DNA of 23,668 nucleotides from a bacterium. Lineage in GTDB: Bacteria > Hinthialibacterota > Hinthialibacteria > Hinthialibacterales > Hinthialibacteraceae. Numbering within the stretch: position 1 is the first letter of the stretch; each line of letters starts with the position of its first letter. The notes below the pieces were generated by a model. That model was given only the letters and a program-made list of their open reading frames with translations. It did no database searches and was not told the origin of the DNA. The stretch lies in the NCBI GenBank assembly GCA_963663405.2, contig CAXXSM010000166.1:1-23668 (forward strand), read 5' to 3'. Shown in pieces: positions 1 to 22,146 of this stretch. The position numbers were made by a program, and so were the translations under genes.

Positions 1-392
1 TCCCCGGATGGTATCTCATGGCTGTGGCTTGATTACGCTACTTTGGATGAAGGATTTCACATTACGGCGATCCTTTAAATCAGTGAGAATGATTATCGGG
101 CCTGGGGATTCCGTGTTTACAACGTTCCAGGAATTCAATATTCCGATCAGCAGATGGAATTGAATTTGAACTCGTTCAAGATCCGGTTGAGGCAGTAGGT
201 GGCGCTGGATCTGCTGGATCTTGGAATGGAGATCGAAATTACCATCCCAGCGTAGTGTACGATGGAAATGGGCAGTTTAAAATGTGGCGTTCCGGGAAAA
301 ACGAAGCAACCGGCGCCTACCGGATGGGATTCACCACAGGAATCGACACCGACTTGGGAACGGTTGTGGATCATTGGGATATTCTTGAATAG
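1..392 (+). pseudogene. 3' part of a disrupted beta-propeller, glycoside hydrolase-like (GH32/43/130-type fold) protein ending in the W-xx-phi tail; 5' end outside the window
   Basis: Manual translation: SPDGISW...AIL*(TAA 76-78)...PGIQY, frameshift near 141-143, then FRSADGIEF...SWNGDRNYHPSVVYDGNGQFKMWRSG...YRMGF...LGTVVDHWDILE* (TAG 390-392). SxDG..W/F turns and the PSVVYD..FKMW blade motif are typical of 5-bladed propellers. Absent from the ORF track. Confidence 0.65.
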
Positions 393-650
393 TGAAGAAA
401 AAAAAGGAATGGGAGTGACAATCATTGAAACGAAGTGAATTTCATCGACTCCGAGTGAGCCGGCTCTAGAGAAGAAGCGATTTATCTACTAGATAAGATT
501 TATCAAAGCCCATAGGTTTGATTTCAGGAGATTTTTTTGTTTGCATACAAACAAATCGCGCCATTTGCGCTTGTCAACCAATTATCGGAGCTCATGTGCC
601 TGTCAGGCACAATCGAAATCGATCAGGGATTTCGATGCTGATTGAGAATT

Positions 651-895
651 TCAATGATATAGCTGGATCGTCTCTTGATCGGTCAGGTCGAACATCTGTT
701 CCAGTAGAAGAACGTCGAGAACGATCCGGATTCTTTGGTCGGGCGTCCTATTTGGGCATGAAAACTGAATTGGATCTCTTCTACGAAGAGTTTGTTAATT
801 AAGTTGGTTTTGAATAAGACGACTCGCCCCACTTCCAGGTGCTTTTTCTGCTTGGGCCCTAAGTAATCTATGAGATTGATGAAAGAGCCTTATTG
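651..895 (-). mobile_element. Degenerate transposase N-terminal fragment (DUF772/InsH_N-like, ISNCY- or IS5/IS1182-like)
   Basis: Minus strand reads DYLGPKQKKHLEVG..LFKTNLINKLFVEEIQFSFHAQIGRPTKE, frameshift, then RIVLDVLLLEQMFDLTDQETIQ. The GRPTKE...LLLxQMxDLTDxET pattern is characteristic of these transposase N-termini. No DDE domain remains and the ends are approximate. Confidence 0.65.
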
Positions 896-1085
896 ATTGT
901 TATCAATTCGGGGCATTACTCAAACTTATGAATTGAATTTACATATTTTATGTATACACTTACATCTTAGTTTTATCAAGTATTACTAACTATTATTAAA
1001 CGAATTGACTTACTTTTGATCGATTACTTTTTGCTGAGGCATGATAAATGGTTTGAGTTCATTTCATATGGAAAAGAGGTATTAC

Positions 1086-2630
1086 ATGTATTTATTCATT
1101 CGTTTAAATGTGTTTTGGATAATGGTTATAGTAATAATGAGCGCGTTCCCTGTGATGGCTCAGATCGAACAAGAGCCTGTCGCCGCCGGTCCGGAAGCAG
1201 CGGAATTGAGCCCATCACCGGCGACATCAATTTATGGTTTGAAAACGGCGGTGGAAGCCGGTATTGGCGGCCGGATTGTGATACGCTGAGCAACGGCGCC
1301 GCGATCGTACTGGGTGGGATGCGGAAAGCGCCCTACGCGAAACACACCCAGGATTCTGAAAACGCACGGGACATGATAGCGATTCTCTCTCCATCGGGAG
1401 AAATTCTCGATCCGGCGCGTTGCGCCTTTTTTACCAACGCAGGTGAACCGTGGGAGAATACAATATGTTCATCCAGAAACGATGATAAGTTTTACGGTTT
1501 GTGCGCGGACACTGTGGGAGGCCGGTCGGGAGAACAATATGTGGTTCATACGATCGCCAATCCCGATCAATGGCCAGAGGCGTTTCCCGGTTATGCGAAA
1601 GAGCCACTATTACGAATACCATACTGCAATACAAGTGATCAGCAATGATGGAATTCCCCAAACACCGCTTATCAATCCCTATGGCGATTATGTTTCTGAA
1701 AGTGGACTGCTTCGTGGAGGAACCGTTAGATTTCTTTCCAATGGTAATATCGTTGTCATTTACGAAGATCGGCAGTCTGGCCAGAAGAAAAAAGAACTCT
1801 ATGGTAGAACACAGCCTGGACAAATTGTCGGAGCCGTGATTATAGGGCCTGATGGGAGCATTGTGAAAGAGCCATTCGCAGTATGCAGTGATAGTCCAAA
1901 CGGTTCATCGAATCGCTTTGGACTCGCGTCTGGGACGGGCTGGTTCGCAGTACGGTATCAAGATGGAGTAACCGGTCCAACTATAGTGGCGTTCGACAAC
2001 GACGGGAACGAGTTGGGAGATGGTTCGGGACGACTTTTCCCCGCCATCGATATTCCAGAATTGGGCGGCGATGGTGGGAACCGTGGAGATCCAAACGGCT
2101 TGGAAGCGGTGAACGATATTCTCTACGTTACTCATAGGGGAATCGATCGCGCTGGGTATCTGACAACGATCCATGTGAGCGGCGAAGGATTGTCTATGAT
2201 TCGGACAATACGCTTTACTGATCTTTCTTGGAGCACGTTCGAGCATAACGCGGATTTGGGCGTTGATTCCGCCGGCAATGTTATTGTAATGTGGCAGGAT
2301 CAAGCTTGGGAGCGATTCCAAACCGGAAGGTGGGAAGTCTTGGCTCGTTTATTCGACGCGAACCTCGAACCGCTGACGTCCTCCTTCTGCCTCTTTGAAA
2401 TCGGTAACAACACGAATATTGATAAAATCGATCCGATCCTTGGTCCGGGGAGAACAAAACAATCCCGTATCGCTATGGACGATGAGATCATCATCGCCAT
2501 CGCCGAAACGAACAATGTTCCGTATGGCGATCCATCTTCCGCTGGTGAAGAGATGTATACCTATACCTATATTGCGCGGATGCTGAAAAATCCTGTGAAG
2601 ACACCCGTTTCTATTTGGGAGGTGTATTGA
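1086..2630 (+). pseudogene. Secreted protein of unknown family (~514 aa when repaired, beta-rich or propeller-like), split by two frameshifts; real pseudogene or sequencing error
   Basis: SD AAGAGGT 1074-1080 and ATG 1086. The signal peptide MYLFIRLNVFWIMVIVIMSAFPVMA-Q lies in ORF 1041..1289. The protein continues after ~1200 in the frame of ORF 1016..1648 (GIEPITGDINLWF...) and after ~1600 in ORF 1443..2630 (KSHYYEYH...). It ends KTPVSIWEVY*. Confidence 0.75.
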
Positions 2631-2636
2631 ATCAAG

Positions 2637-3695
2637 ATGACAAAAACTTTGTTTTATCATTTATGCGAAGAGATTAGAATTTCAAACTGGAAAACGAATC
2701 AGTGGAGGAAATTGAGTCTTCTGTGCTCGTTCTTTTTTTTGTGTATGTTTTCAATGTCCGTGACCGGTCAAGAGATCAAAGATCGATCTTTGGATCCCCT
2801 TGCTTCAGTGAATTCGTTAAAACTGAATATTCCCGAAGATACCGTAGTATGTGGAGTGTTTCAGGAAGGACGGACTCTTCGTGAAGAATACGAACTGCTT
2901 TCCATGATTTATTTCCTGCCCGGCCTTTATGAAATCCCATTGATCACAGGTAGCCATCCTTTGAACCTTATCCAACGTTTTGAGTTTGGTCCAGAGCGCC
3001 GAATCGCCGAACCTATGGGACAGGGAAGCGTCCAGGTCGAGATCACAGATGGCATACAGGCGAATGCCCGCTTGAAATATGAACAGGATTTTGATGTGGA
3101 TGGAACCGTTATTTCGTTATTGATCGACAATCTGTGGATAACAATCAATGATGGTCAACCAGAAAAGGAGGAGCTCATTTTTAACGAACCATTTCTTTCA
3201 TTGGATTTATATATGCTCGCTCAGATGAAAGTAGGATTTAAAACGGTGTTTCTGAAATTCGCTTCTGTGGGATATGACAGTCTCCCCTTGTATCGATTGA
3301 GCCTATCTTTGGAGGCTGGCCAATCTATCCAGCTCTATCAACGATGGCTTCCTCCTCTTGCTGGCTCAGGTCCGGCGAATCTTGTTTTCGCTATGGGGGA
3401 TATACACGAAGGAACAACGATTCAGACGGATTACTGGTCCCTCGTTTATGCGGCGGAACATCACAACTGGAATGAGCGTTTTTGGATGCTCTTCGATTCG
3501 CCAATGGATGGGGCGTATGGAATCGCCGTACTTACGGAAGATTTTCCCAGCCGGGCGGAAGTCTATACGCTCGATGAGAATTTCGAACCATTGCGACAAA
3601 TTGAAGTTCTCTCTTTCGAAAAAGTCCTTTACGACGGTCCTTTCCCTCCAGAAACAGAACCACCGGTATCGATTGATTCATGGGTACAATATTAA
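2637..3695 (+). CDS. Secreted protein of unknown function; stand-alone paralog of the C-terminal domain of 3865..6903
   Basis: 352 aa ORF with GGAGGTG at 2618-2624. Signal-like segment RKLSLLCSFFFLCMFSMSVTG-Q (the true start may be later). Pro-rich linker followed by VSIDSWVQY*. Confidence 0.85.
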   Translation: MTKTLFYHLCEEIRISNWKTNQWRKLSLLCSFFFLCMFSMSVTGQEIKDRSLDPLASVNSLKLNIPEDTVVCGVFQEGRTLREEYELLSMIYFLPGLYEIPLITGSHPLNLIQRFEFGPERRIAEPMGQGSVQVEITDGIQANARLKYEQDFDVDGTVISLLIDNLWITINDGQPEKEELIFNEPFLSLDLYMLAQMKVGFKTVFLKFASVGYDSLPLYRLSLSLEAGQSIQLYQRWLPPLAGSGPANLVFAMGDIHEGTTIQTDYWSLVYAAEHHNWNERFWMLFDSPMDGAYGIAVLTEDFPSRAEVYTLDENFEPLRQIEVLSFEKVLYDGPFPPETEPPVSIDSWVQY

Positions 3696-3864: not shown

Positions 3865-6800
3865 ATGCGCTCTTACTTTACAAAAAACACGCTTGTCCAC
3901 GTTTTGTACATCGCCATTCTCGGATCGATTCTTTTCTCCTGTTCTTCTTTTTCCGTTCCGGCGCAGATCATCCTGCGGGAAATCCCTTGGATGGAAGAGA
4001 TCGGTACGATTGAGGATTATGTTTCCCTATCGGTAGAAGACTCCAGCCGGGCGGATTTGTTGCGAACCTCAAAGTATTTAGCGCCTGCCTCTGACGATCC
4101 TGATTTACTGCCAACTGTATATCAAAATGTCAATTTGAATCGCCTTCATATTGAATTTATGGTTAATGAATTTCCAGACCGGTTTGGAGGGCTGACAGCG
4201 GATGAGTACATGGATCTAGTTTATATACCCGAGACTCGCGCTTATTTTGCCGGCGCGCTGTTTCAGTTTCGCGATATGAATAACAATATTGTTTATGGTT
4301 TCAATATCTATGCTTCTTCCGATAAACCAGCGGATCCAGAAGAGGTGAAAATTCTTTACCACCGCCTATCCCAAAGCATGAAACTGCGCCCTTTCGCCTA
4401 TTCACCCATAATGCCCGCCAATGTCGAACAAGCCAGGAGATGGGAAAATCCAGGATTTCCCATTTACCTGCCCGAAGGATTGATTGAACCTGAATACGAA
4501 GCCTATTCACCGCAAACGAACTACGGTCGTGTGCGCTTGCTTTCACTCGCGCAACTGGATAAAGCGCTTCAGAATGGATCAATCGGCTGGCAGGATATCG
4601 TCGTGATCGACGCCGCTCCCACGGATATTGAAACGGTTGTGGCTGGGATTATCACAGGTTCCCGTCAGGGTGAACTGTCCCACATCAATGTACGTTCGAT
4701 ACGCAGGGGAACTCCGAATGCGTATATCCAGAATCCACACGTGATTTTTAATACCTATCAAGATGAACTCATCAAACTCACTCTGACACCTGATTCCTAT
4801 GAGATCACTTATCCAGTTGAAATAGAAGAAGCGGAGAATTGGTGGGATCAACACCGCCCTCAATTAGCTGCGCTGCCCCAACCGGACGATGAGTTTACAC
4901 TATTAAGTTCTTTGCCTGAAATGACTGAATCCATGACATCCAAAGAACTAATCATGCGCTATGGAGGAAAAGCGGCCCAGTTGGCCATTTTGTATTCCGT
5001 TTTCGCCGTAGGGATCGTGGAAGGAACTGAGATTCCATACTTGGTCGATGGATACGCGATTCCTTTCCATTACTATACAGAATTCATGCGATCCAACCAG
5101 ATACCCCATCCTGCGGATTCCTCCCTATCCATCACATATGAAGAATACATCCATGTTCTATTAGAAGACCAGCGATTCCGAAGCGATGCGGCGTACCGTC
5201 GAAAATGTCTGAATGATTTTATAGAATACGCCTGTGAAAATGGGACAATCAATCCCATCTTGCTGAATGATATCACGATAAAAACAATTGATGTTTTTGG
5301 TGACGCTTCTGTGAAAGTTCGATTTCGCTCTTCTTCCAATGCTGAAGACGATATCGAATTCAACGGCGCTGGGCTTTATGATTCCACTTCCGTTTGCCTA
5401 TTGGATAACCTGGATAACGATGAAGAAGGGCCATCGATCTGCGATCCAGATAAGAAGAAGGAACGTACAATCGAACGTGGACTTAAAACAGTATGGATGA
5501 GTTTATGGAATCCCAAAGCCTTTGAAGAACGAGAGTACTATCAAATCGGCCACCAGAACGCCCGTATGGGGATTTTAGTAACACGGGCGTTTCCGGCCGA
5601 GGATTGCAATGGTGTGGCTTTCACAGGCGATCCCGTCTCAGGATCCAAGGATTATTACCTTATCAACGTACAAAAAGGAGATGATAGCGTTGTACAGCCA
5701 GGGACAGGCGTCATTCCCGAAAAAGATATTATTTACATTGAGAATGGCTCTGTCACCGGGATCAACCGTGTTCGAAGTTCGTCACTCACTGCGGATCAGG
5801 AATGGGTGCTGAGTGACGCGCAATTGAACGAATTGGCCTCCGTTCTTACAAAAATCGAACAGGAAATGCCGGTTGAGGATCAGGAATACAGACGCGATCA
5901 AATCATCTTCGATATTGAATTTAAATATGACAATGGGCGATTAGTGATTAAGCAAATCCGTCCCACTCTCATTACATCCAATGAGGAGCCTCCCCTTCCC
6001 TCAGGGAAAGTGACTCTCAGTATTCCAGCCGACGCTTGTATGGTGGGTATATACAAATTCGCAACCACCCTTCAAGAAGAATATGAAACACTCTCGATGG
6101 TTCATTTCATTTCGGGCGACTATTCCTTGCCTGTACAAACCGGTCAATATGAATTGGAGATTGTTGATCAACTCGAATTCGGTCCCAATAAAACAATCGC
6201 GGTCTCAGCGGCGCCGGGTAAACTACTCGTCGAAGAAGTTAAAATCCCCGGTGAGAGGACTGTTCATCGCTATCAATATGAAAAAACATTTCATATTGTT
6301 GATCAAGCAGAACGAGATCTACTGTTTACAATGCAGGGAATACAAAGAAATATCGACACACAATCCAACGTTCATGTCACATTCGACAACCAAACGATCA
6401 TCCATCAACTCTCTACGACCGGATATCTTGGCGGCCCTCAATCGGAAACAGTCATCAACTACAGCGCGGTCACAGACGATCTGGCCCAGATCTATCGCCA
6501 CCGGCTTATTCTAGAAGATGGACAAAGCATTGAACTGTACGAACTGATCACCCGGCGGATTATGATGATGGGAATCGCATACGCCGATTTCACCTGCGCC
6601 GATGTGAAACTGAAGGAAGCCGCATTCCGGCAGGAGGATTATTGGAAATTGGTTTATACAGCGATGGGACATTGTTGGAATGCCAAGTTTCGTCTGATCT
6701 TTGATGAACCTTTGGGCGATATCTATGGTCTGGATATGCTGACAACAACTCTCCAGTGGGGACTTGATACCGAAGCGGAGGCTTATTGGCTGGATAGCAA

Positions 6801-6903
6801 TCTTAATCATATGCGAAAGATCAATATCCTTGAATATAGCAGGATCGAAGTTGAAGAAATTCCCGAACCTACAACGGATGTGACTTCGTGGCTCTTTTTT
6901 TAA
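3865..6903 (+). CDS. Exported PEP/pyruvate-binding (PPDK_N, ATP-grasp) domain dikinase-like protein with a phospho-His-type motif and an unknown C-terminal domain
   Basis: 1012 aa with AGGTG at 3851-3855 and an N-terminal hydrophobic signal. PPDK_N motifs: YGGKAAQL, FRSSSNAEDDIEFNGAGLYDS, VWMSLWNPKA, MGILV, NGVAFT, DIEF...KQIRP. His motif AGIITGSRQGELSHINVR (His273, nt 4681). Ends PTTDVTSWLFF*. Confidence 0.88.
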   Translation: MRSYFTKNTLVHVLYIAILGSILFSCSSFSVPAQIILREIPWMEEIGTIEDYVSLSVEDSSRADLLRTSKYLAPASDDPDLLPTVYQNVNLNRLHIEFMVNEFPDRFGGLTADEYMDLVYIPETRAYFAGALFQFRDMNNNIVYGFNIYASSDKPADPEEVKILYHRLSQSMKLRPFAYSPIMPANVEQARRWENPGFPIYLPEGLIEPEYEAYSPQTNYGRVRLLSLAQLDKALQNGSIGWQDIVVIDAAPTDIETVVAGIITGSRQGELSHINVRSIRRGTPNAYIQNPHVIFNTYQDELIKLTLTPDSYEITYPVEIEEAENWWDQHRPQLAALPQPDDEFTLLSSLPEMTESMTSKELIMRYGGKAAQLAILYSVFAVGIVEGTEIPYLVDGYAIPFHYYTEFMRSNQIPHPADSSLSITYEEYIHVLLEDQRFRSDAAYRRKCLNDFIEYACENGTINPILLNDITIKTIDVFGDASVKVRFRSSSNAEDDIEFNGAGLYDSTSVCLLDNLDNDEEGPSICDPDKKKERTIERGLKTVWMSLWNPKAFEEREYYQIGHQNARMGILVTRAFPAEDCNGVAFTGDPVSGSKDYYLINVQKGDDSVVQPGTGVIPEKDIIYIENGSVTGINRVRSSSLTADQEWVLSDAQLNELASVLTKIEQEMPVEDQEYRRDQIIFDIEFKYDNGRLVIKQIRPTLITSNEEPPLPSGKVTLSIPADACMVGIYKFATTLQEEYETLSMVHFISGDYSLPVQTGQYELEIVDQLEFGPNKTIAVSAAPGKLLVEEVKIPGERTVHRYQYEKTFHIVDQAERDLLFTMQGIQRNIDTQSNVHVTFDNQTIIHQLSTTGYLGGPQSETVINYSAVTDDLAQIYRHRLILEDGQSIELYELITRRIMMMGIAYADFTCADVKLKEAAFRQEDYWKLVYTAMGHCWNAKFRLIFDEPLGDIYGLDMLTTTLQWGLDTEAEAYWLDSNLNHMRKINILEYSRIEVEEIPEPTTDVTSWLFF

Positions 6904-9169: not shown

Positions 9170-9191
9170 TAATGCGATGTGGATAATGATG

Positions 9192-10058
9192 TTATGCATT
9201 GTTTTTTACAAAAGGAATCACTAGGTTCTTAATCCAATTAGCAAATTCAAGTTGGCGGATCTCATCCGATAAAACATCATCATCGATATCCAATTGCCAC
9301 CGCAAGTCTTTTCTATCGGGATTAGCGAAAAGAAGTTCCAAACGATCGACATATTGAGTCAAGTCGTCATGGCCGGTGAAAAATCCTGCGGGTACGAGTT
9401 TGTGTTCTCGCGCGACGATTAAACGGGCCAGTTCGTGCAGATCATATTCGGGATGATATTGAACGCCCCAAAATGTTCCTTTTTTATGTGTAACAGACAA
9501 CGCTTGTACTGGAGAAAAATCATTTCCCGCCAGCAATATTCCACCGGAAGGCAGTTTGGTAATGTGATCATCATGACTGATATACGCGTTGAATACAGAT
9601 GGTTTTCCTTCATACATCGGATGGCCTTGCCCTTCCGGTGTTAATTGAATTTTCCGAGCAAGTCCCATTTCTCGCCCTTTGGGATTGGATTGGACTTCTC
9701 CTCCGGCGGCGACAGCGGCCATTTGGATTCCCCAGCAGCTACCGAAACTGGGAATTCCTATTTCAAACGCGTCTTTTGCAAGCTGGATTTGACTGGTGAC
9801 ACTGGGGTTGGATTCATCGTAAATTGTTAAATTACATCCAGTCCAGATTATACCGCTATAGATTTCAAGTTCGGAAGGCGTATACATTTTGACTCCTTCA
9901 TCCGAAGGAAGTAAAACATCATACGATGCTTCCGGCAGGTATTTATTCAATAGTTTGACATACAAGTTCCATGCTAGACACATACCCGCTGTCGCTAAAT
10001 CATCGCGGCTCTTTTTCGAGTATCCATCTATAATTAACACGTGATATTGATTTGTCAT
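9192..10058 (-). CDS. Class I glutamine amidotransferase-like hydrolase (candidate gamma-glutamyl-amide hydrolase)
   Basis: Catalytic triad motifs FGSCWGIQM and VQYHPE, plus SHDD. Stand-alone 288 aa protein with no synthase domain. Confidence 0.88.
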   Translation of the reverse strand: MTNQYHVLIIDGYSKKSRDDLATAGMCLAWNLYVKLLNKYLPEASYDVLLPSDEGVKMYTPSELEIYSGIIWTGCNLTIYDESNPSVTSQIQLAKDAFEIGIPSFGSCWGIQMAAVAAGGEVQSNPKGREMGLARKIQLTPEGQGHPMYEGKPSVFNAYISHDDHITKLPSGGILLAGNDFSPVQALSVTHKKGTFWGVQYHPEYDLHELARLIVAREHKLVPAGFFTGHDDLTQYVDRLELLFANPDRKDLRWQLDIDDDVLSDEIRQLEFANWIKNLVIPFVKNNA

Positions 10059-10112
10059 AAGGTATCTTCTTTCAATTTAATTCCAGATTGAAGGCAAATG
10101 ATCGTTTCGATT

Positions 10113-10874: not shown

Positions 10875-11150
10875 TAATAACTACTCTTTCATTAAGGATA
10901 TAATCTGTTCAGTTCAATGATTGAACGTTAGAGAGTGGAACGTATATGTGTCAATTTTTATACTTTTGGATAAATTGATTTCGAGTGAAAGTTGAAAAAG
11001 TATGGGCCTAATTTTATCCAATTTAATTATAATCTCAATCTCGAAAAGTCAGAAAACTCAAATGATTATCAAATTCTTGCAGAATAAAATAGTAAGACCG
11101 GATTTTCATATACTGTTCGAACTAGCACATCACTGTCTCGTTCAGTTTGG

Positions 11151-11217
11151 GACGCGGTAGAGACGCCGGTTTCTCGGCGTTCCCCGCGCAGATTCCAGCG
11201 AGTGGAATTATCGCACT
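11151..11217 (-). mobile_element. Group II intron 3' remnant (partial domain V plus domain VI)
   Basis: Minus strand AGTGCGATAATTCCACTCGCTGGAATCTGCGCGGGGAACGCCGAGAAACCGGCGTCTCTACCGCGTC. It contains a DV-like hairpin followed by a DVI stem (GCGG..ACGCCG / CGGCGT..CCGC) with a bulged A. The 5' GAGC catalytic triad and the RT ORF are absent. Confidence 0.75.
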
Positions 11218-11267
11218 ATATCCCTGTAGGATCAATTGAAGATCGTACAGGAAACTGCATGCATGAA

Positions 11268-12647: not shown

Positions 12648-12732
12648 CAGCGGAGATTGACCGTTTCAATTGAATTATATATGTCACACGAAAAAAGGTG
12701 TTATCTATTATAGGGAGAGTAACGCAATTAAG

Positions 12733-14181
12733 TTAATCCTCAAAATAAATAAAGACATTTTTTACTTCTGTAAAATTATCCAAACTTTCCATCCCTAAAT
12801 CCCGACCGATACCACTTTGTTTAAATCCACCGAAAGGCGCTTCGATGAACACGCTGGAACTAGTATTGACACCTAAGACACCAGAACGAATCTGTTTGGA
12901 AACACGGTGGGCGCGCGTAAGATCATTGGTCCAGAGTGAACCGGACAATCCGAATTTAGTACCATTGGCTTGTCGAATCATGTCATCTTCATCGGTAAAA
13001 GGGATTACATTGAGAACCGGGCCAAAAATTTCTTCCTGCGAAATGCGCATGTCATTGGTTGCGTTTGTAAAAACTGCGGGACGGATATACGAACCTTTGG
13101 CAAAAATCCCTTCAGTTAATATATCGCCACCATACGCCAAGGTTGCGCCTTCTTGTTGCCCCAATTGTATATATGAATGAACGGTTTCCCGTTGTTTCAT
13201 GGAGACCATCGGTCCGATTTGGGTGGCGTCATCCATGGGATCGCCGATGACGGTTTTATGGGTTTGATCAATAAACGTGTCGACGAATTCATCGTAAACC
13301 GATTGTTCGACAAAGGCGCGGCTTCGAGCGCAGCAATCCTGTCCACAATTCCCGAAAACGCCTAACACGGAATTTCGCGCCGCATTTTCCACATCTGCGT
13401 CGGCGAAAACGATATTGGGTGATTTCCCCCCTAATTCAAGAGAAACCCGCTTGATATCGTTAGCGGCCGTTTTCATGATTTCGATCCCCGTGGTGGTTTC
13501 ACCGGTAAATGTGATTTTATCGACACCCGGATGCGCCACAATGGCGTTCCCGGCCGATGATCCCGGACCCGTGAGGATATTCAAAACTCCGTCCGGGAGT
13601 CCCGCTTCCAGCGCGATTTCCCCCAAATACAGGGCCGAAAGAGGGGTATAGCTGGCGGGTTTGAGAATCACAGCGTTCCCTGTCGCCAGCGCAGGAGCCA
13701 CCTTCCAACAAGCCATGGCAAAAGGAAAGTTCCAAGGGACTATCCCTGCGACAACACCGCAAGGAACGCGAAGAGTATAGTCGAGTCCCTGCTTGGAAAC
13801 GGGGATGGTTTTCCCGGTATATTTTGTAATCGCGCCGGCGTAATACTCGAAACAATACGCTCCCGCGCCGACTTCATCTCTTGAGTCGCAGATCGGTTTC
13901 CCGACGTTCATCGATTCGATTTGGGCGATTTCTTCCTGTTTTTCGCGCAACAACTCGGCAAATCGAAAGAGAACGGAAGCGCGTTCGGAAGCGAGCATAT
14001 TTGGCCAGGGCCCTTCATCAAACGCTTTCCGGGCGGCTCGAACCGCCACATCAACATCTTGCTCATTCGCTTTGGCTACTTGCGCCATCAGTTCGGTTTG
14101 AGCAGGATTGATTACATCGAATGTTAAACCCGATTTCGCGGGAATCCATTTTCCTTGGATGAATAACAGGTGCTGTTTCAT
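12733..14181 (-). CDS. NAD-dependent aldehyde dehydrogenase
   Basis: IVPWNFP, KPASYTP, FTGETTTG, LELGGKSP, catalytic Cys in NCGQDCCA, EEIFGPV, PFGGFKQSGIGR. Confidence 0.95.
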   Translation of the reverse strand: MKQHLLFIQGKWIPAKSGLTFDVINPAQTELMAQVAKANEQDVDVAVRAARKAFDEGPWPNMLASERASVLFRFAELLREKQEEIAQIESMNVGKPICDSRDEVGAGAYCFEYYAGAITKYTGKTIPVSKQGLDYTLRVPCGVVAGIVPWNFPFAMACWKVAPALATGNAVILKPASYTPLSALYLGEIALEAGLPDGVLNILTGPGSSAGNAIVAHPGVDKITFTGETTTGIEIMKTAANDIKRVSLELGGKSPNIVFADADVENAARNSVLGVFGNCGQDCCARSRAFVEQSVYDEFVDTFIDQTHKTVIGDPMDDATQIGPMVSMKQRETVHSYIQLGQQEGATLAYGGDILTEGIFAKGSYIRPAVFTNATNDMRISQEEIFGPVLNVIPFTDEDDMIRQANGTKFGLSGSLWTNDLTRAHRVSKQIRSGVLGVNTSSSVFIEAPFGGFKQSGIGRDLGMESLDNFTEVKNVFIYFED

Positions 14182-14230
14182 AGTTTACTCCTAATGTTGA
14201 TAATGTGATCGCGATAGAATGTGGTTTATA

Positions 14231-15397
14231 TTACCAACTTTCTTGATAAAGACGTAACAGGTCCTCTTTCGAGCAGGGGCGTGGATTCGTTTGATGACAG
14301 GGATCCTCGAATGCTTTTTGGACTAATTTTTCCAGACCTTCTTCCGGAATGCCGCAATCGCGCAACCGCGCCGGAATTCCGATTCGGTGATTCAGATCGG
14401 CGACTGCTTGGATCGCAGAAGCCGCCGCGTCAGAATCGGCCATCTCACGGGTGTCGATTCCAAAAAGAATAGCGACTTTCCGATACTCTTTGCAGGCGGC
14501 TTCTTGGTTGAAGCGCATCACCGCCGGCAAACAAACCGCATTGGCAAGGCCATGTTGCAAACCGAATTCCGCCGAGAGAGGATGAGCCAGGGAATGCGCC
14601 GCGCCTAGATCTTTTTGAAATGAGATCGCTCCCATTGTCGCCGCAATCATCATATATCCTCGGGCTTCGATATCCTGACCGTTTTCAACGGCGCGTTCCA
14701 GATAGTTAATCACGAGTTCCAGTCCACCCAGCGCGACGGCGTCACAAATGGGGTGAAACACAGGGGCCGTCAATGATTCAAGGTTATGGGTAAACGCATC
14801 CATTCCCGTATACGCCGTGAGATGAGGTGGCAATTCAACCGTCAATTCGGGATCTTCAATGGCGCGCGCCGGTAAAAGAAGGGGACTGAAAATGAACATT
14901 TTACGTTCCAATTCAGGAATGGTAATCACGGATACACGCCCAACTTCACTGCCCGTTCCGGCTGTGGTGGGAATAGCGATAATGGGCGGCAAGGGCCCTG
15001 TAATGCGTTCATAGCCACCGGTTTGCGCGTCAAATTCGACAAGGGGCCCATTATGGACTACACGAACGGCAATCGCTTTTGCCACATCGATCGCGCTTCC
15101 TCCACCCAAACCGATGACTCCATCACACTGTTCATCCTTGAATTGCTTTCCTGCGCGTTCCACATCCTCCTCGATTGGATTGGGATGGACACCAGAAAAA
15201 AGAGAAAATTCTTGCTTGGCGCTTTGTAATGTTTCTTCAACTTTGACGAACGCTTCAGTCTTCAAAAAAGCGGAATCAGTAACGAGTAATGGTTTTTTAC
15301 TCCCCGTTTCTTCAAGGCATTTGGGGAGTGTTTTAATCGCCCCAGCGCCAAAAATAATCGTGGTAGGGAAATTGAATCGAGAGATTTCATTGAACAC
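14231..15397 (-). CDS. Iron-containing alcohol dehydrogenase
   Basis: GGGSAIDVAK, PTTAGTGSE, metal ligands in DAFTH, HSLAH and HGLANA. SD GAGGAG upstream of the GTG. Confidence 0.95.
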   Translation of the reverse strand: MFNEISRFNFPTTIIFGAGAIKTLPKCLEETGSKKPLLVTDSAFLKTEAFVKVEETLQSAKQEFSLFSGVHPNPIEEDVERAGKQFKDEQCDGVIGLGGGSAIDVAKAIAVRVVHNGPLVEFDAQTGGYERITGPLPPIIAIPTTAGTGSEVGRVSVITIPELERKMFIFSPLLLPARAIEDPELTVELPPHLTAYTGMDAFTHNLESLTAPVFHPICDAVALGGLELVINYLERAVENGQDIEARGYMMIAATMGAISFQKDLGAAHSLAHPLSAEFGLQHGLANAVCLPAVMRFNQEAACKEYRKVAILFGIDTREMADSDAAASAIQAVADLNHRIGIPARLRDCGIPEEGLEKLVQKAFEDPCHQTNPRPCSKEDLLRLYQESW

Positions 15398-15983: not shown

Positions 15984-17213
15984 TTAGGATTTTGGACGGG
16001 GGAAGCCCGGATTTTGATTCCAGGCCCCCTTTTGCTGTCCAAAACAAATATCATCAAAGGTTAATTGTAAGTCTTCTGGAGGTTTTGGCGGGATTTGAAA
16101 CGGATCGTTTATCCATTTCATTAAATCCCTGTAGGTAAACAAATTTAGACGAAGAAAAGCCACCAGATTGGAGAGTGACCAATCCCATTGGGAACGGAAT
16201 TGGAGTATCTTCAAAATCAAAATGGGAATCAAGGCGGTCCAAATTTGAATCTTCAAAGCATTCGCCGACGTGCCGACAAAGGTTTTCACTTTCAGGTTTT
16301 GCTTTAATAGTTTGAAGAAGATTTCTATTTGCCAGCGTTCCTTGTAGATGGCCGCGATAGTACGGGCGGCGAATTCGTGGTGATTGGTCAACAAGTCGAT
16401 CATCCGTTTATTTTCTTCATCCCAAACCCGTACCAATCGGAACGTCATGCCGGAGCAGACTTCTTGCGCACGATTCGAGGTGAAACGGATCGTATAATCG
16501 CCCCGTAGATTCGAATCCCCTGGGACCACTCGGCGGCTGATCAACTGATACTTCAAATTCTCTTTGAGCCGGGTGACAAAATACACGCCCCGGTCGGTCC
16601 ATTGCCGAAACAATTCGAAATCGACATAGGCGCGATCCATGGCCACGATCGAGCCCGCGGCCAGATGAAGCAATCGGGCGATTGTGATATCGTGTTGTTT
16701 TCCCTCACCAATGTAGGCGTAGGCGGGCAGATACCCGTCGTGATCCAGGAGCAGGTGAAGTTTGACCGCCCCCTTGGTGCGCCGAAACTTCGCCCAATCG
16801 AACAGAGACGCGCACAAGTCAATGACGGACAAATCCAGGCTGTCGAGTTTGTTCTTGAAGCGGAATTTACGTTTCCCCTGAAATTCCAACTGCGCTTGGC
16901 GCAAAAGCGTGTAAAAGAGAGCCTGGAACATTTCCCAGGAACGATGTTGATTCGCATAGGCGAGAGTTGAGCGCTTGGGGGCGTTTTTGATACCGAGATG
17001 GGTTAATTTCCCTACACATGTGGCCAATCCCCCGCAGATTTCTCGCAAGGATTTCGCTTGGCCAAGTTGGCAAAACAACATGGCTACCAATTGCTCCCAG
17101 CATGAAAAATTCTTCGCATAGCGATTCCCGGAATACGTGTCCACGATGCGGGCGAATTCAAAACGAGGTATAAAGGCTAGGATTTGCGAAAAAAGACTGG
17201 CACAATAAGTCAT
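15984..17213 (-). CDS. IS4-family DDE transposase (DUF4372 + DDE_Tnp_1)
   Basis: SLFSQIL, QLVAMLFCQL..SLREI, VKLHLLLD, MDRAY, YKERWQIEIFFK (YREK motif). The start is more likely ATG 17213, preceded by GGAGGT, than 17249 as in the ORF track. Confidence 0.93.
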   Translation of the reverse strand: MTYCASLFSQILAFIPRFEFARIVDTYSGNRYAKNFSCWEQLVAMLFCQLGQAKSLREICGGLATCVGKLTHLGIKNAPKRSTLAYANQHRSWEMFQALFYTLLRQAQLEFQGKRKFRFKNKLDSLDLSVIDLCASLFDWAKFRRTKGAVKLHLLLDHDGYLPAYAYIGEGKQHDITIARLLHLAAGSIVAMDRAYVDFELFRQWTDRGVYFVTRLKENLKYQLISRRVVPGDSNLRGDYTIRFTSNRAQEVCSGMTFRLVRVWDEENKRMIDLLTNHHEFAARTIAAIYKERWQIEIFFKLLKQNLKVKTFVGTSANALKIQIWTALIPILILKILQFRSQWDWSLSNLVAFLRLNLFTYRDLMKWINDPFQIPPKPPEDLQLTFDDICFGQQKGAWNQNPGFPRPKS

Positions 17214-17276
17214 ATCGGACACCTCCAGCATGGATTGGATATTTCGCAACTATACAATACCATGCGGGTGTCCGAT
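17214..17276 (-). promoter_or_regulatory. Hairpin overlapping the transposase ribosome-binding site
   Basis: ATCGGACACC 17214-17223 pairs with GGTGTCCGAT 17267-17276, and GCATGG 17228-17233 pairs with CCATGC 17260-17265. The stem covers part of the SD and abuts the ATG. Confidence 0.6.
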
Positions 17277-17371
17277 TCTCATAGATGGACAATCCCTCAT
17301 TTTTTTATTGGACAAGAGTGATAGCGGGTATACCGATATGGAGTAGTGTTTTATGACGCCGGTAAAATAAA

Positions 17372-20344
17372 TCACTCTGCCAGTTCAGGAAACGATTGAA
17401 CGGCTATGGCCCAATCGGAACAATATGGCGCGCGCCAATTGTATCGTTTCATTTCGAATGTTCCTATATCGATTTCCACATTTTCTTTCTTCGTGTCTAC
17501 GGCTATGGCGGTCATTGGTTGAGAGAGATCAGTAAAATCCATTTTCAGGTGTGTACAATCTTCTTTATAAAATAAGAATAATGAATGATTTGAATGCTTT
17601 AAACAAAAACCGTCTGTGCGTGAATTATCTTCTACCATATCTTTGAAAAATCGATTTGTAAAAAAAACAGCGTAGGTTTTCATCCATTCAGGATGAGGGT
17701 AAGGAGCCGATCCACCCGCACCAGAACCTTCATTCAAAAGATTTCCCCAAATATTGGCTACTCCGCCGGCCATGGTTGAGTGCCACAGTCCACGGCGAGT
17801 CATTTCTTCGTCATAATCTTTATCGGGATATCGTGAAGGCCAGCGGATGCGAAATCGGTCTTCGGAAAAAGCCGGCTTAGAAGGCCTGTGTTTAAGCGCG
17901 GCGAGATAAACCTCATAGGTGGGGCGATGATGCTCATAACTCGCGTAATCCAGGCCATCATAGATGGTTTGATTGGAATGATCGGTACCTTTGCGAGGGC
18001 CTCCCGGACGGCCCCCGAGTAAATGCTCCCATCCAAATTGTTGATGCATAAACGAGTGCCACTCCCTCAGATCATCTTCGGAAACCCACTCGAATAAGTC
18101 AAATCCATACCCCATTGTCCAGCCCGGAAGGGGGCCTAATCGTGCGGCGATGTAACGTTGCAGCCGTTTATCGGCAGGACCATTCTTCCCCCATCGGACT
18201 GGTGTCATATGCCGTTGTTCATCACCCCATGCCCATAGATGAATGAATCCTCCAGCGGTGTGTACAGAAGTGATCAATTGTTCGAGCGCTTCAAAGGTTT
18301 TCAAATCGGGATTTGGATCATCACTATCAATGTCATCGTATTTCGTTTGATTCCAATCAAACCAGCGGCATAACACGCTCGTGTGAAATCCATTAAATCC
18401 GTGATGGACCAAAAATGTTTGAATGTCTTTTTGTATTTTCCCCGGATTGTTCGAAAAAGCGGGAAGATCGTCGTACATCACGAGTTGGGGAACGAATGCT
18501 TCATTTGTCCCCATCCATCCCCATTTATTTGCAAAATGAGTGACAAAGCCATGGATTCTTGGATTCGGATGAGGATTGACAATAACTTTACCAACAATCC
18601 CATCAAGACCGGATTCTTCACTGCGGGTTTGAAATGTCCATAAACCGGTTTTTACACCGGTGAACCGGAACGCCCATTTCCCATTGCCAGTATAAAACAT
18701 GCCGGTTGTACGCGTCTCTCCGTTGGGGTGAGAAAAGATTACATGAGCGTTTACATCAAATGGATTGTCCGCTTTCGATGAATGGGGAATCGTCCATTCC
18801 ACATAAGGAGACCATTGGGTGACAGTTCGATTTAAGCGTGTATCGGTCCCGTCGACAGTGATGGTTTGGTTCGCTGAAATATTTTGATGAACGGCTGTCG
18901 ATCCATCCAAGAATTTTACAACGATATCAACCGTTTTACATGCGCCTAATCCAAAGTGCAAGACTGGATCATTTTGACCAAGGTAACCGTTATTGCTGCG
19001 AGATTCCCGCATGCCCAGGATTACGTTTCCGATACGTCCGGAGGGATAGACAAACGTTTTGGCGCCAAAAGCGCCGTTTTGATTTTGAGGGGAATTCAAT
19101 CGGACCTTCAACCAGTTCCCCTGGTTGTAATCGTTCCGCACGAGCCAGTTCACCGACCGTTTCGCGCCGATCGCGAAATCGGGATCCCCATCGTTATCAA
19201 TATCCGCAAAGGCGATTCCACGTGGGTCGTTGATCCCAGATACTGGTATTGGGGAGCCGGCTGAAAACGTTCCAGTACCATCATTGATGTACATTTTGCG
19301 ATCTCCGGCAAACACCAGATCCTGATCCCCGTCGTTATATAAGTCGCTGAATCCCCCCATGTAACCTGCTGTGTCTGTAAACGATTGATGATGTAGAAAC
19401 GTTCCATTGCCTTGATTGATGTACAATGCCCCGTAGTCATCGCCCGCAAGCAGTAAATCCAGATCGCCATCGTTATCAACGTCGGCTGAAGTAATTCCAT
19501 CGTGGGCCAAGTGATGAATTCCCAAATCGGCCGGTGGAATAAGAGTAAATTGGCCGATCCCATCATTTTGTAGAATATTAACAGGGCCTGTTCGGTTGGC
19601 GGCGATAAGATCAATATCGCCGTCTCCATCAAAATCAGTATCCGTGGCGCCCTGACCAGCGGGACAGGTATTCCAATCTCCCGCATTGAAGGAAGTAAAT
19701 GTCAGTTTTCCTTCATTTCGGTAGATTTCATTTTGTTCGCCATGTGGATCGTTTGTCCCTTGATAATTGGTGACGCTGAATAGATCTAAATCACCATCAT
19801 TATCCATATCGAAAGCGAGCGCTCCGCGTGTCGGCCAACGGCGATCGAGTGATAGTCCGCTATCCCATGTAACCTCAGTAAAATTCCTGTTTCCATTATT
19901 GCGGAATATATTGTTGTGTGACGGATATTCCGGAGTGTCCCACGTCGTTCCGTTAAATACATCGTAATCACCATCATTATCCAGATCCGCAAACACAGTA
20001 CCGTGAGACCCACCATCGAAATCGTCAATCCCACGTTTTTTCCCCTCTTCAGCAAAAATACAATCACCCTTGTTGTGGAAAAATAATTCTGGCATGGGAT
20101 CGTTGAAGATCATGGTGATGCAGAGATCAGGTAAAGAATCCCCATCGATATCGGCGAACATAACGCCATGCCCACCCGTTAAATCAGATGGCCCACCGGT
20201 TCCCGCGGACTTTGTCATATTAGTAAAAGACGATTCCGCATTAACGATAGAGCCGGGGGTCAATACAAACCCGATTACGACAGACATAGCTGTATAAAGG
20301 GATAAGAAACATTTTAGATTGTTATATTGGCAAGGTGAAAACAC
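17372..20344 (-). CDS. Secreted fusion protein: FG-GAP/VCBS repeats + ASPIC/UnbV (CRTAC1-like) + DUF5060 + glycoside hydrolase-like TIM barrel
   Basis: Signal-like N-terminus (IVNA-E). Repeated DxDxDGDxD motifs. ASPIC motif GYLGQNDPVLHFGLG. DUF5060-like NPFDV..FSHPNG..GMFYTGNGKWAFRF. DUF4038-like RYIAARLG and RRGLWHSTMAGG. Start codon uncertain. Confidence 0.85.
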   Translation of the reverse strand: MFSPCQYNNLKCFLSLYTAMSVVIGFVLTPGSIVNAESSFTNMTKSAGTGGPSDLTGGHGVMFADIDGDSLPDLCITMIFNDPMPELFFHNKGDCIFAEEGKKRGIDDFDGGSHGTVFADLDNDGDYDVFNGTTWDTPEYPSHNNIFRNNGNRNFTEVTWDSGLSLDRRWPTRGALAFDMDNDGDLDLFSVTNYQGTNDPHGEQNEIYRNEGKLTFTSFNAGDWNTCPAGQGATDTDFDGDGDIDLIAANRTGPVNILQNDGIGQFTLIPPADLGIHHLAHDGITSADVDNDGDLDLLLAGDDYGALYINQGNGTFLHHQSFTDTAGYMGGFSDLYNDGDQDLVFAGDRKMYINDGTGTFSAGSPIPVSGINDPRGIAFADIDNDGDPDFAIGAKRSVNWLVRNDYNQGNWLKVRLNSPQNQNGAFGAKTFVYPSGRIGNVILGMRESRSNNGYLGQNDPVLHFGLGACKTVDIVVKFLDGSTAVHQNISANQTITVDGTDTRLNRTVTQWSPYVEWTIPHSSKADNPFDVNAHVIFSHPNGETRTTGMFYTGNGKWAFRFTGVKTGLWTFQTRSEESGLDGIVGKVIVNPHPNPRIHGFVTHFANKWGWMGTNEAFVPQLVMYDDLPAFSNNPGKIQKDIQTFLVHHGFNGFHTSVLCRWFDWNQTKYDDIDSDDPNPDLKTFEALEQLITSVHTAGGFIHLWAWGDEQRHMTPVRWGKNGPADKRLQRYIAARLGPLPGWTMGYGFDLFEWVSEDDLREWHSFMHQQFGWEHLLGGRPGGPRKGTDHSNQTIYDGLDYASYEHHRPTYEVYLAALKHRPSKPAFSEDRFRIRWPSRYPDKDYDEEMTRRGLWHSTMAGGVANIWGNLLNEGSGAGGSAPYPHPEWMKTYAVFFTNRFFKDMVEDNSRTDGFCLKHSNHSLFLFYKEDCTHLKMDFTDLSQPMTAIAVDTKKENVEIDIGTFEMKRYNWRAPYCSDWAIAVQSFPELAE

Positions 20345-20487
20345 TGGGTGATCCTTTTCGTGAGCATGTTGCGTTTCTAGTTACACAGGTACCTACTGGA
20401 ATTGGATTTGCTGATTTGTTAATAGCTGGAGTATATCATATAACGGTTGGGAGCGCCAAGAATTAAAATAATTCACTTTTCCTTAGC

Positions 20488-20535
20488 TTCCACCACCATC
20501 ACAATAATAGTATTAATGAAAATGGCGGTTGGATT
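20488..20535. repeat. Dispersed ~50 bp imperfect hairpin repeat, copy 2
   Basis: 20 bp exact match (20516-20535) to 7906-7925, with a similar 5' arm TTCCACCACCATC. Confidence 0.7.
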
Positions 20536-20657
20536 TACTTTAACGTGAAGGAAATATGATGAGTGCTCTGTTGTAGTAAAATGTTCAAAAAAAGGGTATC
20601 TTCAAGGTGCGAAGGAATGATTTGGTGTGAGAACGTTATAATTCGAATACACTGCTT

Positions 20658-20843
20658 ATAGCGAAGTTGTGGAATGCTGATACCGGATTGGAAATTCTCA
20701 CCTTCAAAGGCCACGTCGAGCGATTGACTTCCGTTGCGTTTTCTCCGGATGGTAGGCGAGTTCTCACGGGGAGTATGGATGGCACAGCGCGTATTTGGGA
20801 CATTAATGATCTGACCAGCGTAGAGCAATGGAGTTTATTTTAA
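20658..20843 (+). pseudogene. 3' remnant of a WD40-repeat protein ending in the W-xx-phi tail
   Basis: IAKLWNADTGLEILTFKGHVERLTSVAFSPDGRRVLTGSMDGTARIWDINDLTSVEQWSLF* contains a canonical GH...WD repeat. An in-frame TGA at 20628-20630 lies just upstream and there is no credible start. Absent from the ORF track. Confidence 0.88.
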
Positions 20844-20882
20844 GCTTACTTATGAAGAAAAAAAAATTCAGGAGACAAAATC

Positions 20883-22146
20883 ATGATTAATTTCCTGCGT
20901 TTACATCTCACAAGTATGTTGGTAATTGTTTTCATAATTCATCCAGCAATTCTTGTAGCCCAAACCGTAGACGAACGTTTTACAACAGCTGAAATCCACA
21001 TACCCTAAATGCAGTTTGAGGTGGCGATTTTGGTGAATGGTGATCCGGGAGATATTACTGTTATTGAAACGCCACCGGTGTGATGGGCTATTGGCGGAAT
21101 CAATTCAAACGGATTGCTGAATGATGGCACTATTACATGGACGCTTCCCTCATTTGCTGGAAACGCGAAATTAATTTACAAGGTAACTCCTCCTTAAAGT
21201 GCAATTGAGGATGGGATTTTTTCAGGAACAGTAGGAGACAGCGAAATCGGGGGGATTTTCGATTCTGTATTACGAAGTAAAATCCGGGATTGCTGAATCG
21301 GAAGTAGAAAAAGTAGCCAACGCTTCAGGCAGCACGGAAGGCCCGGTTTGGCATAAGGATGGCTTTCTTCTATTTTGCGGGGTGGGTGTGATTAAGAAAT
21401 GGGCGCTGGGGCAAACGATTTCTAGCTGACGTCCCATCGGAGCCAACGGGCTGACATATGATCCGGAAGGACGATTGGTTGCCTGTGTTCCTGAAAACGA
21501 CCGCCGCGTTCTCCGAATCGAATCGGATGACAGCATCACGGAAATTGCGGATAACTATCAGGGAAAGAAATTCAACCTTCCCAACGACCTTTTTATTCAT
21601 TCCGATGGGATGATTTTCTTTACGGATACGGATTACACATTTCTAAGTGGGACTCAATCAGAAATGCCCGCTGGCGTTTACTGTATACGGCCGGGTAACC
21701 AACCTTTAAAAATAATCGAAAACAATTTGATCAATCCGAATGGTATCGCGCTTTCTCCGGATGAAACAAAAATCTATATTGCTGACTGTGAGGATTCCAT
21801 GCCCTGGATCGCGATGCCCTCGTTTCATGGAGTCCGAGCTTATGATGTGGCTGCCGATGGATCGTTATCCAAGGGAAAACAATTTGCTCCAACCGTTTGT
21901 GATGGAATGAAGGTGGATCAGGATGGGAATGTCTATCTCTCCGTGGGTTCTGTGGTGATCTACTCTCCGGAAGGTGAACTCATAGAAGTGATCCGTATTC
22001 CTGAATTTACCCGCAATCTCGCCTTTGGCGATGAGGATAACAAAACGCTGTATATCACTGCGGGAAACAGCGTCTATAAAGTTCGTGTTCGGTATCCAGG
22101 CGTTCGAGTGTGGAAATCCGGAATCGTGGATTGGCAGGACTATTAA
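20883..22146 (+). pseudogene. Secreted SMP-30/gluconolactonase-family protein with an N-terminal beta-sandwich-like domain, pseudogene
   Basis: AGGAG followed by ATG 20883, signal peptide ending ILVA-Q. In-frame stops at 21006, 21081, 21195 and 21427, and a frameshift near the G run at ~21250. SGL motifs TEGPVW, GANGL, PND, PNGIALSPD, DGMKVD, NLAFG. Ends KSGIVDWQDY*. Confidence 0.88.

Follow-up and report, generated by a model that had tools for sequence, protein, structure and literature searches.

The window considered here, that is the whole stretch of 23,668 nucleotides that was analysed, is contig CAXXSM010000166.1 (C166) of a Hinthialibacterota bacterium, 23.7 kb of an 8.44-Mb genome that is assembled in 170 contigs and has 47% G+C. 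Several of its genes end with a short tail built around a tryptophan, with the consensus T-x-V-x-[ND]-W-x-[LVIM]-[YHF]; the same tail closes 193 of 6390 open reading frames (ORFs) of the genome, mostly coding exported-type proteins, and it is present throughout the window's phylum and in part of a second phylum, titled Sumerlaeota, the latter being a new finding. We propose, with a probability of about one half, that the tail is a short linear address or docking tag, providing cell-surface retention or docking of soluble, non-lipidated exoproteins.

The motif was defined on a crude proteome of non-overlapping ORFs of at least 100 residues, which covers 83% of the genome. The strongest position-specific enrichment over the last 15 positions is that of Trp at position -4, found in 274 of the 6390 ORFs, 2.6 times the background; among these 274, position -1 is Tyr in 99, His in 32 and Phe in 32, position -2 is Leu in 105, position -5 is Asp in 52 and Asn in 41, position -7 is Val in 126 and Ile in 37, and position -9 is Thr in 91, Val in 45 and Ser in 34. 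A 12-residue matrix refined from these ORFs gives a bimodal score: 160 ORFs exceed 8, nearly all of them exceeding 12, against one ORF at a control position 30 residues upstream. At a cut-off of 12, the motif ends exactly at the stop codon in 158 ORFs and 1, 2, 3 and 4 residues before it in 28, 3, 2 and 2 ORFs, respectively, altogether about 3% of the set; the residues that follow the aromatic one in 35 of the 193 tails (about 18%) are mostly Glu, Asp, Lys or Gln. One ORF has the motif at offset 16, and internal matches are 13 in about 2.0 million positions; since almost all occurrences lie at offsets 0-4, the tail is a strictly C-terminal feature. The initial annotation of the window had described a looser consensus with invariant spacing; the consensus is corrected to the one given above and has to admit the 1-4 extra residues. 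Its own regular expression, scanned over the proteome, retrieved 129 of the 6390 true ends and only 2-8 at artificially truncated ends, and a DNA pattern back-translated from the motif has 60 matches in the genome versus 1 for the reversed control.

Within the window, translation confirmed all six C-terminal tails that had been proposed, at the stop codons ending at 392, 2630, 3695, 6903, 20843 and 22146; scored with the matrix derived from the whole genome, they are as follows.

360..392, plus strand: tail TVVDHWDIL, one extra Glu and stop; one-extra-residue variant, score 7.5 at offset 1 (marginal)
2601..2630, plus strand: tail TPVSIWEVY and stop; carrier gene 1041-2630, matrix score 21.4 (strong), matched by the DNA pattern
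3666..3695, plus strand: tail VSIDSWVQY and stop; carrier gene 2637-3695, 352 residues, matrix score 17.6 (strong)
6874..6903, plus strand: tail TDVTSWLFF and stop; carrier gene 3865-6903, 1012 residues, score 15.9 (strong), matched by the DNA pattern
20814..20843, plus strand: tail TSVEQWSLF and stop; WD40 fragment, ORF 20667-20843, matrix score 17.3 (strong)
22117..22146, plus strand: tail SGIVDWQDY and stop; SMP-30/gluconolactonase-like gene, matrix score -2.0

The six had been taken as one motif: five of them fit it, the one at 392 marginally (a paralogue of its carrier on contig C132 scores 15.8), while the tail at 22146 is probably not a member. Eight other ORFs of the window, among them the FG-GAP protein encoded at 17372-20344, were scored and none has the tail (matrix scores from -18 to -44), in agreement with the earlier statement that the cytoplasmic enzymes of this region do not end in this way. 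The four N-termini that are visible are signal-peptide-like, both by eye and with a heuristic caller, as had been reported; the claim that two of the carriers are paralogous found no support, the adjacent 1443-2630 and 2637-3695 being not detectably so (BLASTP E = 0.9). The carriers 1443-2630, 2637-3695 and 3865-6903 are intact or nearly so, although frame shifts and in-frame stops lie between the ORF 1443-2630 and its signal-peptide-like start at 1041. Fragments of broken genes are represented by the SMP-30-like gene 20883-22146 and by the two ends at 392 and 20843: the gene ending at 392 is frame-broken and extends off the contig edge, the gene upstream of the WD40 fragment is broken (interrupted region 20352-20843), and the SMP-30-like gene has its signal peptide at 20883 and a frame break before 21475. 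The carrier 3865-6903 has a signal-peptide-like N-terminus and a PPDK_N-like domain (Pfam PF01326, E = 3.7e-21), ORF 21475-22146 matches Pfam SGL (E = 1.9e-29) and ORF 20667-20843 matches WD40 (PF00400, E = 4e-13); the Pfam scan assigned no family to 1443-2630, 2637-3695 or the fragment before 392. A search of the genome contigs for loci related to the 352-residue protein gave 42 pattern matches, none of which was confirmed.

What is conserved in the tail is the peptide. In the tail codons, information resides at the first two positions of those for Thr, Val and Leu, with 0.02-0.05 bits at the third positions of Thr, Val and two variable codons and 0.22 at that of Leu, and no conservation is seen in the sequence after the tail stop codon. 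Because third positions are mostly free and nothing is conserved past the stop, selection acts on the peptide and not on a DNA repeat.

The tagged proteins are diverse and mostly of the exported type. BLASTP single-linkage clustering distributes the 160 strict-end proteins in 68 clusters, 44 of which are singletons. Signal-peptide-like N-termini were called in 132 of 156 tagged ORFs versus 2208 of 6115 others (odds ratio 9.7, Fisher p = 7.5e-35), or in 67% versus 25% when only the first start codon is considered, figures that are relative, since the caller is heuristic and has a background rate of 36%; the equal frequency in exported and cytoplasmic proteins, which the initial annotation had named as the result that would speak against a sorting signal, was therefore not observed. 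Lipobox-like sites are found in 3 of 189 tagged ORFs versus 219 of 6067 others, and no hydrophobic helix follows the motif in the tagged proteins. Among 21 tagged proteins of this genome and nine of the second phylum, Pfam domains include Laminin_G_3 (LamG), CBM9, cohesin with dockerin and PPC, beta-helix/pectinesterase, LRR, CotH with LTD, FG-GAP, WD40, trypsin, NAGPA and CBM30. Tagging is not universal among exported proteins, since a 990-residue signal-peptide protein of the window (17372-20344, minus strand), with FG-GAP repeats, ASPIC/UnbV and DUF5060, ends with ...SFPELAE and lacks the tail.

An AlphaFold2 model of a tagged 216-residue LamG protein, with a mean predicted local distance difference test (pLDDT) of 84.6 and a predicted template modelling score of 0.85, leaves the tail residues 205-216 at pLDDT below 50 and devoid of secondary structure, so that the tail is predicted to be disordered and free. 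In an alignment of orthologues of a tagged protein it comes after a linker of 4-5 residues that follows the last domain strand, and in the 12 residues upstream of the motif Lys is at 0.33 and Arg at 0.68 times the background. The 11 proteins that terminate in a dockerin all lack the tail. Four proteins have their last cohesin no more than 61 residues from the C-terminus, and in two of them the tag follows it directly; in the one tagged protein that contains a dockerin, this domain is 170 residues from the end and PF00404 has no match at the tail. The first two of these small observations favour retention over release, the anchor of anchoring scaffoldins being located at the same place.

One tagged group, a 15-member LRR family (internalin-like by NCBIfam, below threshold), shows a more extended conserved stretch, GF.[YF].PQ....C.T, preceding the tail. 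At the loci C22:2453-7359 and C88:3874-12248, genes of this family adjoin ORFs that resemble, by eye from their N-terminal sequences, B12-binding radical SAM proteins, and on C88 two S41 peptidase ORFs of about 1150 residues are also close to the LRR-family gene; these neighbours hint at a modification or maturation step that would be specific to this family.

The tail is retained in relatives over large distances. A 692-residue tagged protein has orthologues in 20 of the 35 genomes sampled from the window's phylum, its own included, and all 21 full-length loci (36-70% identity) keep the tail, with an invariant Trp and a nearly invariant Val at -7; the last residue varies among Phe, Tyr, His, Gln, Arg and Trp, and extra residues occur at some loci. 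A pectate-lyase-like protein shows, by eye, the Val/Ile..Trp.. tail in 28 of 30 loci from three families, down to about 30% identity, the remaining two loci being unassessable (a wrong ORF picked in one case, masked bases in the other). Among the best 120 relatives of a CotH/LTD protein in a collection of 5.8 billion proteins, 94 are tagged, always directly past the terminal CotH helix; others stop exactly at this helix, and two have PF18962, the type IX secretion system (T9SS) C-terminal domain, instead. The three closest full-length relatives of the LamG protein have the same type of tail (in one case exactly, in another with a final Arg, in the third followed by two more residues), while relatives at 35-42% identity end at the domain boundary or with a different short tail. 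LamG relatives P0009-P0011, from another lineage, carry a different short Trp-containing tail, ...KLASTWGEIKALR, and other uncultured lineages may have their own short C-terminal tags.

The distribution across lineages was followed with the back-translated DNA pattern and its reversed control, in 35 species of the window's phylum, all of one class. The other genomes of the window's family, 19 of 19, have 13-66 matches (control 0-3); two other families of the same order have 4-31, the remaining three families of the phylum have 1-18, with no credible match in one of their genomes, G028, and six outgroup genomes have 0-3. A stricter pattern found at least 114 stretches in 185,579 species genomes. 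Among the 114 matches listed, 58 end a frame open for at least 100 codons and 56 are short-frame matches scattered over many phyla; of the 58 long-frame matches, 19 are titled Candidatus Sumerlaeota/Sumerlaeales, four Candidatus Omnitrophota, two Candidatus Hinthialibacteria OLB16 and 31 "bacterium" or "uncultured bacterium", while the other two (Gemmatimonadaceae and Chitinophagaceae) look like chance. These record titles, together with protein names such as those of Candidatus Hinthialibacter antarcticus among the CotH relatives, agree with the OLB16/Hinthialibacterota lineage that the initial annotation had mentioned. In the second phylum, reached through a Sumerlaeota-titled locus, 47 of 75 species have pattern matches and 28 have none: the best are G107 with 18 (control 1), G041, G096 and G097 with 13 each (control 0), G090 with 11 and G046 with 9, while 17 of the 18 genomes G047-G064 lack any match, the exception being G052 with two. 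From 20 loci of four genomes of this phylum, 25 ORFs ending T-x-V-x-D-W-x-L-Y were obtained. The earlier idea of a lineage-specific tag is thus right as regards a modular and lineage-restricted signal, and has to be extended to a second phylum.

The failure of described sorting families to fit, already stated in the initial annotation, was confirmed by scans of 36 tagged proteins against Pfam and 12 against NCBIfam, which gave no match to any sorting-domain model. The T9SS C-terminal domain (type A; PF18962, TIGR04183) resembles the tail in that it has no membrane helix and closes soluble, Sec-exported proteins belonging to many unrelated families in bacteria with two membranes, and it takes the position of the tail in the two CotH relatives mentioned above. 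However, it is a folded domain, with a Pfam model of 75 positions, while the tail has 9-12 residues, is predicted to be disordered and shows no sequence likeness to it; PF14349 (SprA_N) and PF18962 have no matches in the genome, in a search whose controls were silent in all 14 control genomes.

A second group of systems comprises PEP-CTERM/exosortase, LPXTG/sortase, GlyGly-CTERM/rhombosortase and MYXO-CTERM/myxosortase. These also are modular, lineage-restricted C-terminal tags, found on dozens to hundreds of exported proteins per genome, with the same kinds of cargo as the tail (LamG, CBM, beta-helix). Signals of this type are outlined in 10.1101/2023.06.07.544157 as a signature motif followed by a membrane-spanning helix and a basic tail. 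The proteins described here, on the contrary, end 0-4 residues past the motif, with no helix and no basic tail; as regards PEP-CTERM itself (Pro-Glu-Pro, membrane helix and Arg-rich tail), no hydrophobic stretch is present past the aromatic residue, and TIGR02595 has no match in the genome, in a search whose control was positive nowhere.

Dockerins share with the tail the role of a C-terminal docking module, with which it is mutually exclusive at the terminus and which it recalls by its place after the last cohesin in two scaffoldin-like proteins. They are folded calcium-binding domains with a duplicated loop-helix (Pfam model of 57 positions), while the tail has no fold, and we know of no cohesin-like receptor for it. 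WxL domains are C-terminal domains of 150-200 residues with two WxL motifs, linked to non-covalent cell-surface attachment in single-membrane Firmicutes. The likeness is that of a C-terminal Trp-x-Leu motif associated with surface attachment; the conserved stretch of the tail is however limited to 9-12 residues, and the Pfam scan of 36 tagged proteins gave no match to a WxL family. The outer-membrane beta-signal of substrates of the beta-barrel assembly machinery, which forms the final strand of a membrane beta-barrel and has a terminal aromatic residue and alternating hydrophobic ones, differs in its carriers, since those of the tail are soluble-domain proteins (LamG, CotH, CBM9, LRR, WD40), and in its pattern, the hydrophobic residues of the tail being at -1, -2, -4 and -7, not alternating, in a predicted unstructured segment. 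Three further candidates were dropped on the basis of the sequence logo alone: an asparaginyl-endopeptidase or transpeptidase site after Asn/Asp at -5, as this residue is far from invariant; a likeness to the Ton-box (Glu/Asp-Thr-x-x-Val), as the register differs; and a Bacteroidetes-type O-glycosylation site, as the motif does not fit.

Surface docking is the reading that we prefer because of the types of cargo, the Sec signal, the lack of lipid anchor and helix, the disordered tail and its C-terminal position, the relatives in which it is absent or gives way to a T9SS domain, and the dockerin and cohesin observations. The tagged proteins would cross the inner membrane by means of their Sec-type signal peptides; the last 9-12 residues would remain unfolded and free, and the side chains of the Trp, of the aliphatic and of the aromatic residues could be read by a conserved envelope component acting as a receptor. 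The outcome would be surface retention rather than export or processing, and the machinery would be encoded elsewhere in the genome. In such a role the tail would be a functional counterpart of a dockerin, of PEP-CTERM or of the C-terminal domain used by T9SS.

Several results weigh against this proposal. In some orthologues the last residue drifts to Gln or Arg, and the extra residues found in about 18% of the tails indicate that the aromatic residue does not strictly have to bear a free carboxylate, a point against a reader of the classical PDZ type; the signal-peptide enrichment comes from a heuristic caller, and the cohesin/dockerin argument is based on small numbers. As regards the reader, no recurrent non-pilin family among the neighbours of tagged genes looks like machinery, in line with the earlier expectation that the machinery is not local, and exosortase (PF09721) has no match in this 82% complete genome, in a search whose control was positive in one of 14 genomes; two Omp85 proteins are encoded. 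The phylogenetic profiling that had been suggested for finding co-occurring machinery was not successful either: three candidate readers were profiled in the second phylum and none follows the tag.

The first of these three, the GspK of a type II secretion system (T2SS) cluster on contig C133, was rejected as a tag-specific marker, having no match in the tag-rich G041, G089, G090, G096 and G097; strong matches to it occur in many genomes that have few tag matches or none at all, and also in the tagged G068-G070 and G075. The second, the GspK of the core T2SS cluster on C29, is present in every strongly tag-positive genome, and is uninformative because it occurs in 71 of the 75 genomes whatever their tag status. 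The third is a 546-residue signal-peptide protein encoded beside a secretin gene on C18, with a weak, sub-threshold Pfam match to the WxL-interacting-protein domain (E = 6.7e-4); it is present in four of 75 genomes and does not track the tag. Downstream of this secretin gene (locus C18:29009-32723) and of another one (locus C38:27270-28524) there is a small ORF that resembles a lipoprotein, the two ORFs having similar C-termini (...Y.[LF].TGE[IL]K), and no T2SS ATPase was seen nearby; the pairs may represent a minimal secretin system.

The only family other than those with the tag that clearly recurs beside tagged genes is a GspG-like pseudopilin family of about 134 members with an FTLIELL N-terminus, and this suggests, as a tentative and on balance unlikely alternative to surface docking, that the tail is an outer-membrane export signal, by which the folded periplasmic protein would dock on a machine resembling type II secretion, through one of its pseudopilins or a type IV filament. 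Among 160 tagged genes, 19 have a pseudopilin gene immediately next to them, versus 44 of 1003 untagged genes with signal-peptide-like products (odds ratio 2.9, p = 5e-4), an enrichment of about three-fold; for the 5093 remaining genes the count is 168, with respect to which the odds ratio for tagged genes is 4.0. The tagged 692-residue gene has a same-strand downstream pilin gene in 11 of 21 orthologous loci, and in the second phylum a pilin gene is directly adjacent at three of 20 sampled tag loci, with about 0.4 expected as estimated from pilin density. The genome also has nine secretin-family matches, probably corresponding to 7-8 genes, and the presence of the core T2SS GspK in every strongly tag-positive genome is in line with such a route. 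A precedent is provided by TcpF and CofJ, whose flexible N-terminal segments bind the minor pilins TcpB and CofB, indicating, according to PMC10120004, that a terminal peptide which is short, linear and flexible and has an aromatic residue that becomes buried suffices to direct a Sec-exported protein to a type IV filament machine. The likeness consists of the linear terminal peptide and of the enrichment of tagged genes beside pseudopilin genes; however, the TcpF/CofJ segment is N-terminal, serves a single cargo per system and has no sequence likeness to the tail, which is C-terminal, belongs to about 190 cargos and for which pilin binding is hypothetical.

Against export by a pilin-based machine, pilin expansion is independent of the tag in both phyla. 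The FTLIELL DNA pattern has 28-205 matches per genome in the first phylum, genomes with few or no tags included, and 10-129 matches in all 75 genomes of the second phylum, including the 28 tag-free ones; pseudopilin copy number was consequently rejected as a correlate of the tag, the family being expanded in every genome of both phyla, tagged or not. Moreover, about 88% of the tagged genes have no pilin neighbour, the orthologues of the pectate-lyase-like protein have none except at the locus of the query itself, the core GspK is found whatever the tag status, and the second T2SS type, that of C133, is missing from the five tag-rich genomes listed above. A complex prediction that combined the soluble part of a conserved neighbouring pseudopilin, represented by 11 aligned sequences, with the C-terminal 45 residues of the tagged protein beside it (21 sequences) scored 0.00 twice; it gives no verdict and was not used for or against binding. 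The GspG-like paralogues (e.g., C36:88185-88745 and C149:115417-116001) have a near-identical N-terminus, GFTLIELLIVVAIIGILAAIAVPNF, and conserved DPF, GPD and YDxSNG..S.GDI motifs; the H-X9-DG model was not among the matches listed for them. In its boldest form, which we regard as speculative and rather improbable, the tail would be the first linear, transplantable C-terminal signal that, in a bacterium with two membranes, passes Sec-exported folded proteins to a type IV filament or pseudopilin machine, which would either send them through a secretin or display them on the filament, with the hundred-fold expanded GspG-like paralogues as adaptors.

Returning to surface docking, it has also to be compared with proteolysis of the tail. 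Substrates of tail-specific proteases have a hydrophobic or aromatic extreme C-terminus, as the tail does, and the tail could be a site for a periplasmic C-terminal protease, of the S41 Prc/CtpA type or of the HtrA type with PDZ, its removal leading to maturation or controlled turnover. The genome contains seven S41 peptidase matches and about ten PDZ-bearing ORFs, two giant S41 genes being those close to one tagged LRR-family gene on C88, and 158 of the 193 tails end exactly at the aromatic residue. The other 35, however, tolerate residues past it; the S41 and PDZ families are universal, while the tag is confined to two lineages, and adjacency of PDZ and S41 genes to the tag is, by eye, not above the expectation from tag density. 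A degradation signal would hardly be expected under purifying selection on about 3% of the proteome and on stable families of extracellular enzymes. We consider this explanation quite unlikely.

An equally improbable explanation, in our opinion, is that the tail needs no reader and acts as an aromatic clamp on an envelope glycan, on lipopolysaccharide or on a polysaccharide substrate, or by self-association of the carriers. Trp and Tyr are typical sugar-stacking and membrane-interface residues, many of the carriers are carbohydrate-active or carbohydrate-binding, and neither neighbourhood nor profiling revealed a reader. Yet the fixed spacing of the nine residues, and the specific preferences for Thr, Val and Asn/Asp that two phyla share, point to a motif for protein-protein recognition; furthermore, an obligatory C-terminal position is not needed for a generic sticky patch, and LRR, WD40, CotH and protease carriers have no link with sugars. 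Finally, chance, a composition effect or a repeated DNA element overlapping the stop codons is already refuted by the matrix score (160 versus 1) and the DNA pattern (60 versus 1), by the free third codon positions and the lack of conservation past the stop, and by the persistence of the tail at about 30% identity.

C-terminal sorting signals define how the bacterial surface is built, and to our knowledge every one described so far consists either of a motif followed by a membrane helix and a basic tail or of a folded domain. C-terminal address tags on exported proteins are known as a kind, and the nine-residue architecture without helix and fold is not; an unfolded tag of this size on about 3% of the proteome, in two candidate phyla without cultured members, would imply a new kind of reader. 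If the tail is an address tag, the surface and secreted proteome of these polysaccharide-degrading lineages would become predictable from sequence alone, and a very small tag for display or secretion engineering would be available. Since genomes divide into those with and those without the tag, comparative genomics offers a directly tractable way to look for its reader. Should handover to pilins be true instead, the tail would offer a sequence-level handle on the long-open question of substrate recognition in type II secretion, and would explain what the very large orphan families of pseudopilins do in these phyla and in those of Planctomycetes-Verrucomicrobia-Chlamydiae (PVC) type. A full-text search of the literature found no description of the tail, and in the main text of the paper naming Hinthialibacterota (PMC9324843) the terms "C-terminal" and "sorting" are absent.

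The remainder of the window is occupied by genes of other kinds. On the minus strand, 9192-15397 encodes cytoplasmic enzymes, namely a GATase/peptidase C26, a HAD hydrolase, a glutamine-synthetase-like protein, an aldehyde dehydrogenase and a Fe-alcohol dehydrogenase; this run resembles a gamma-glutamyl-amine or polyamine catabolic cluster and none of its enzymes is tailed. An IS4-type transposase (15984-17249, minus strand; DUF4372 and DDE_Tnp_1) separates the FG-GAP gene from this metabolic operon. Towards its right end the contig is poor in genes, and there a short ORF (22388-22586, plus strand) starts almost like a 198-residue ORF at C118:108598-109194, with the common stretch K.KIR.PRQKRLP....HS.VR..L.AV; it looks like a fragment of a repeated mobile-element gene, possibly integrase-like.

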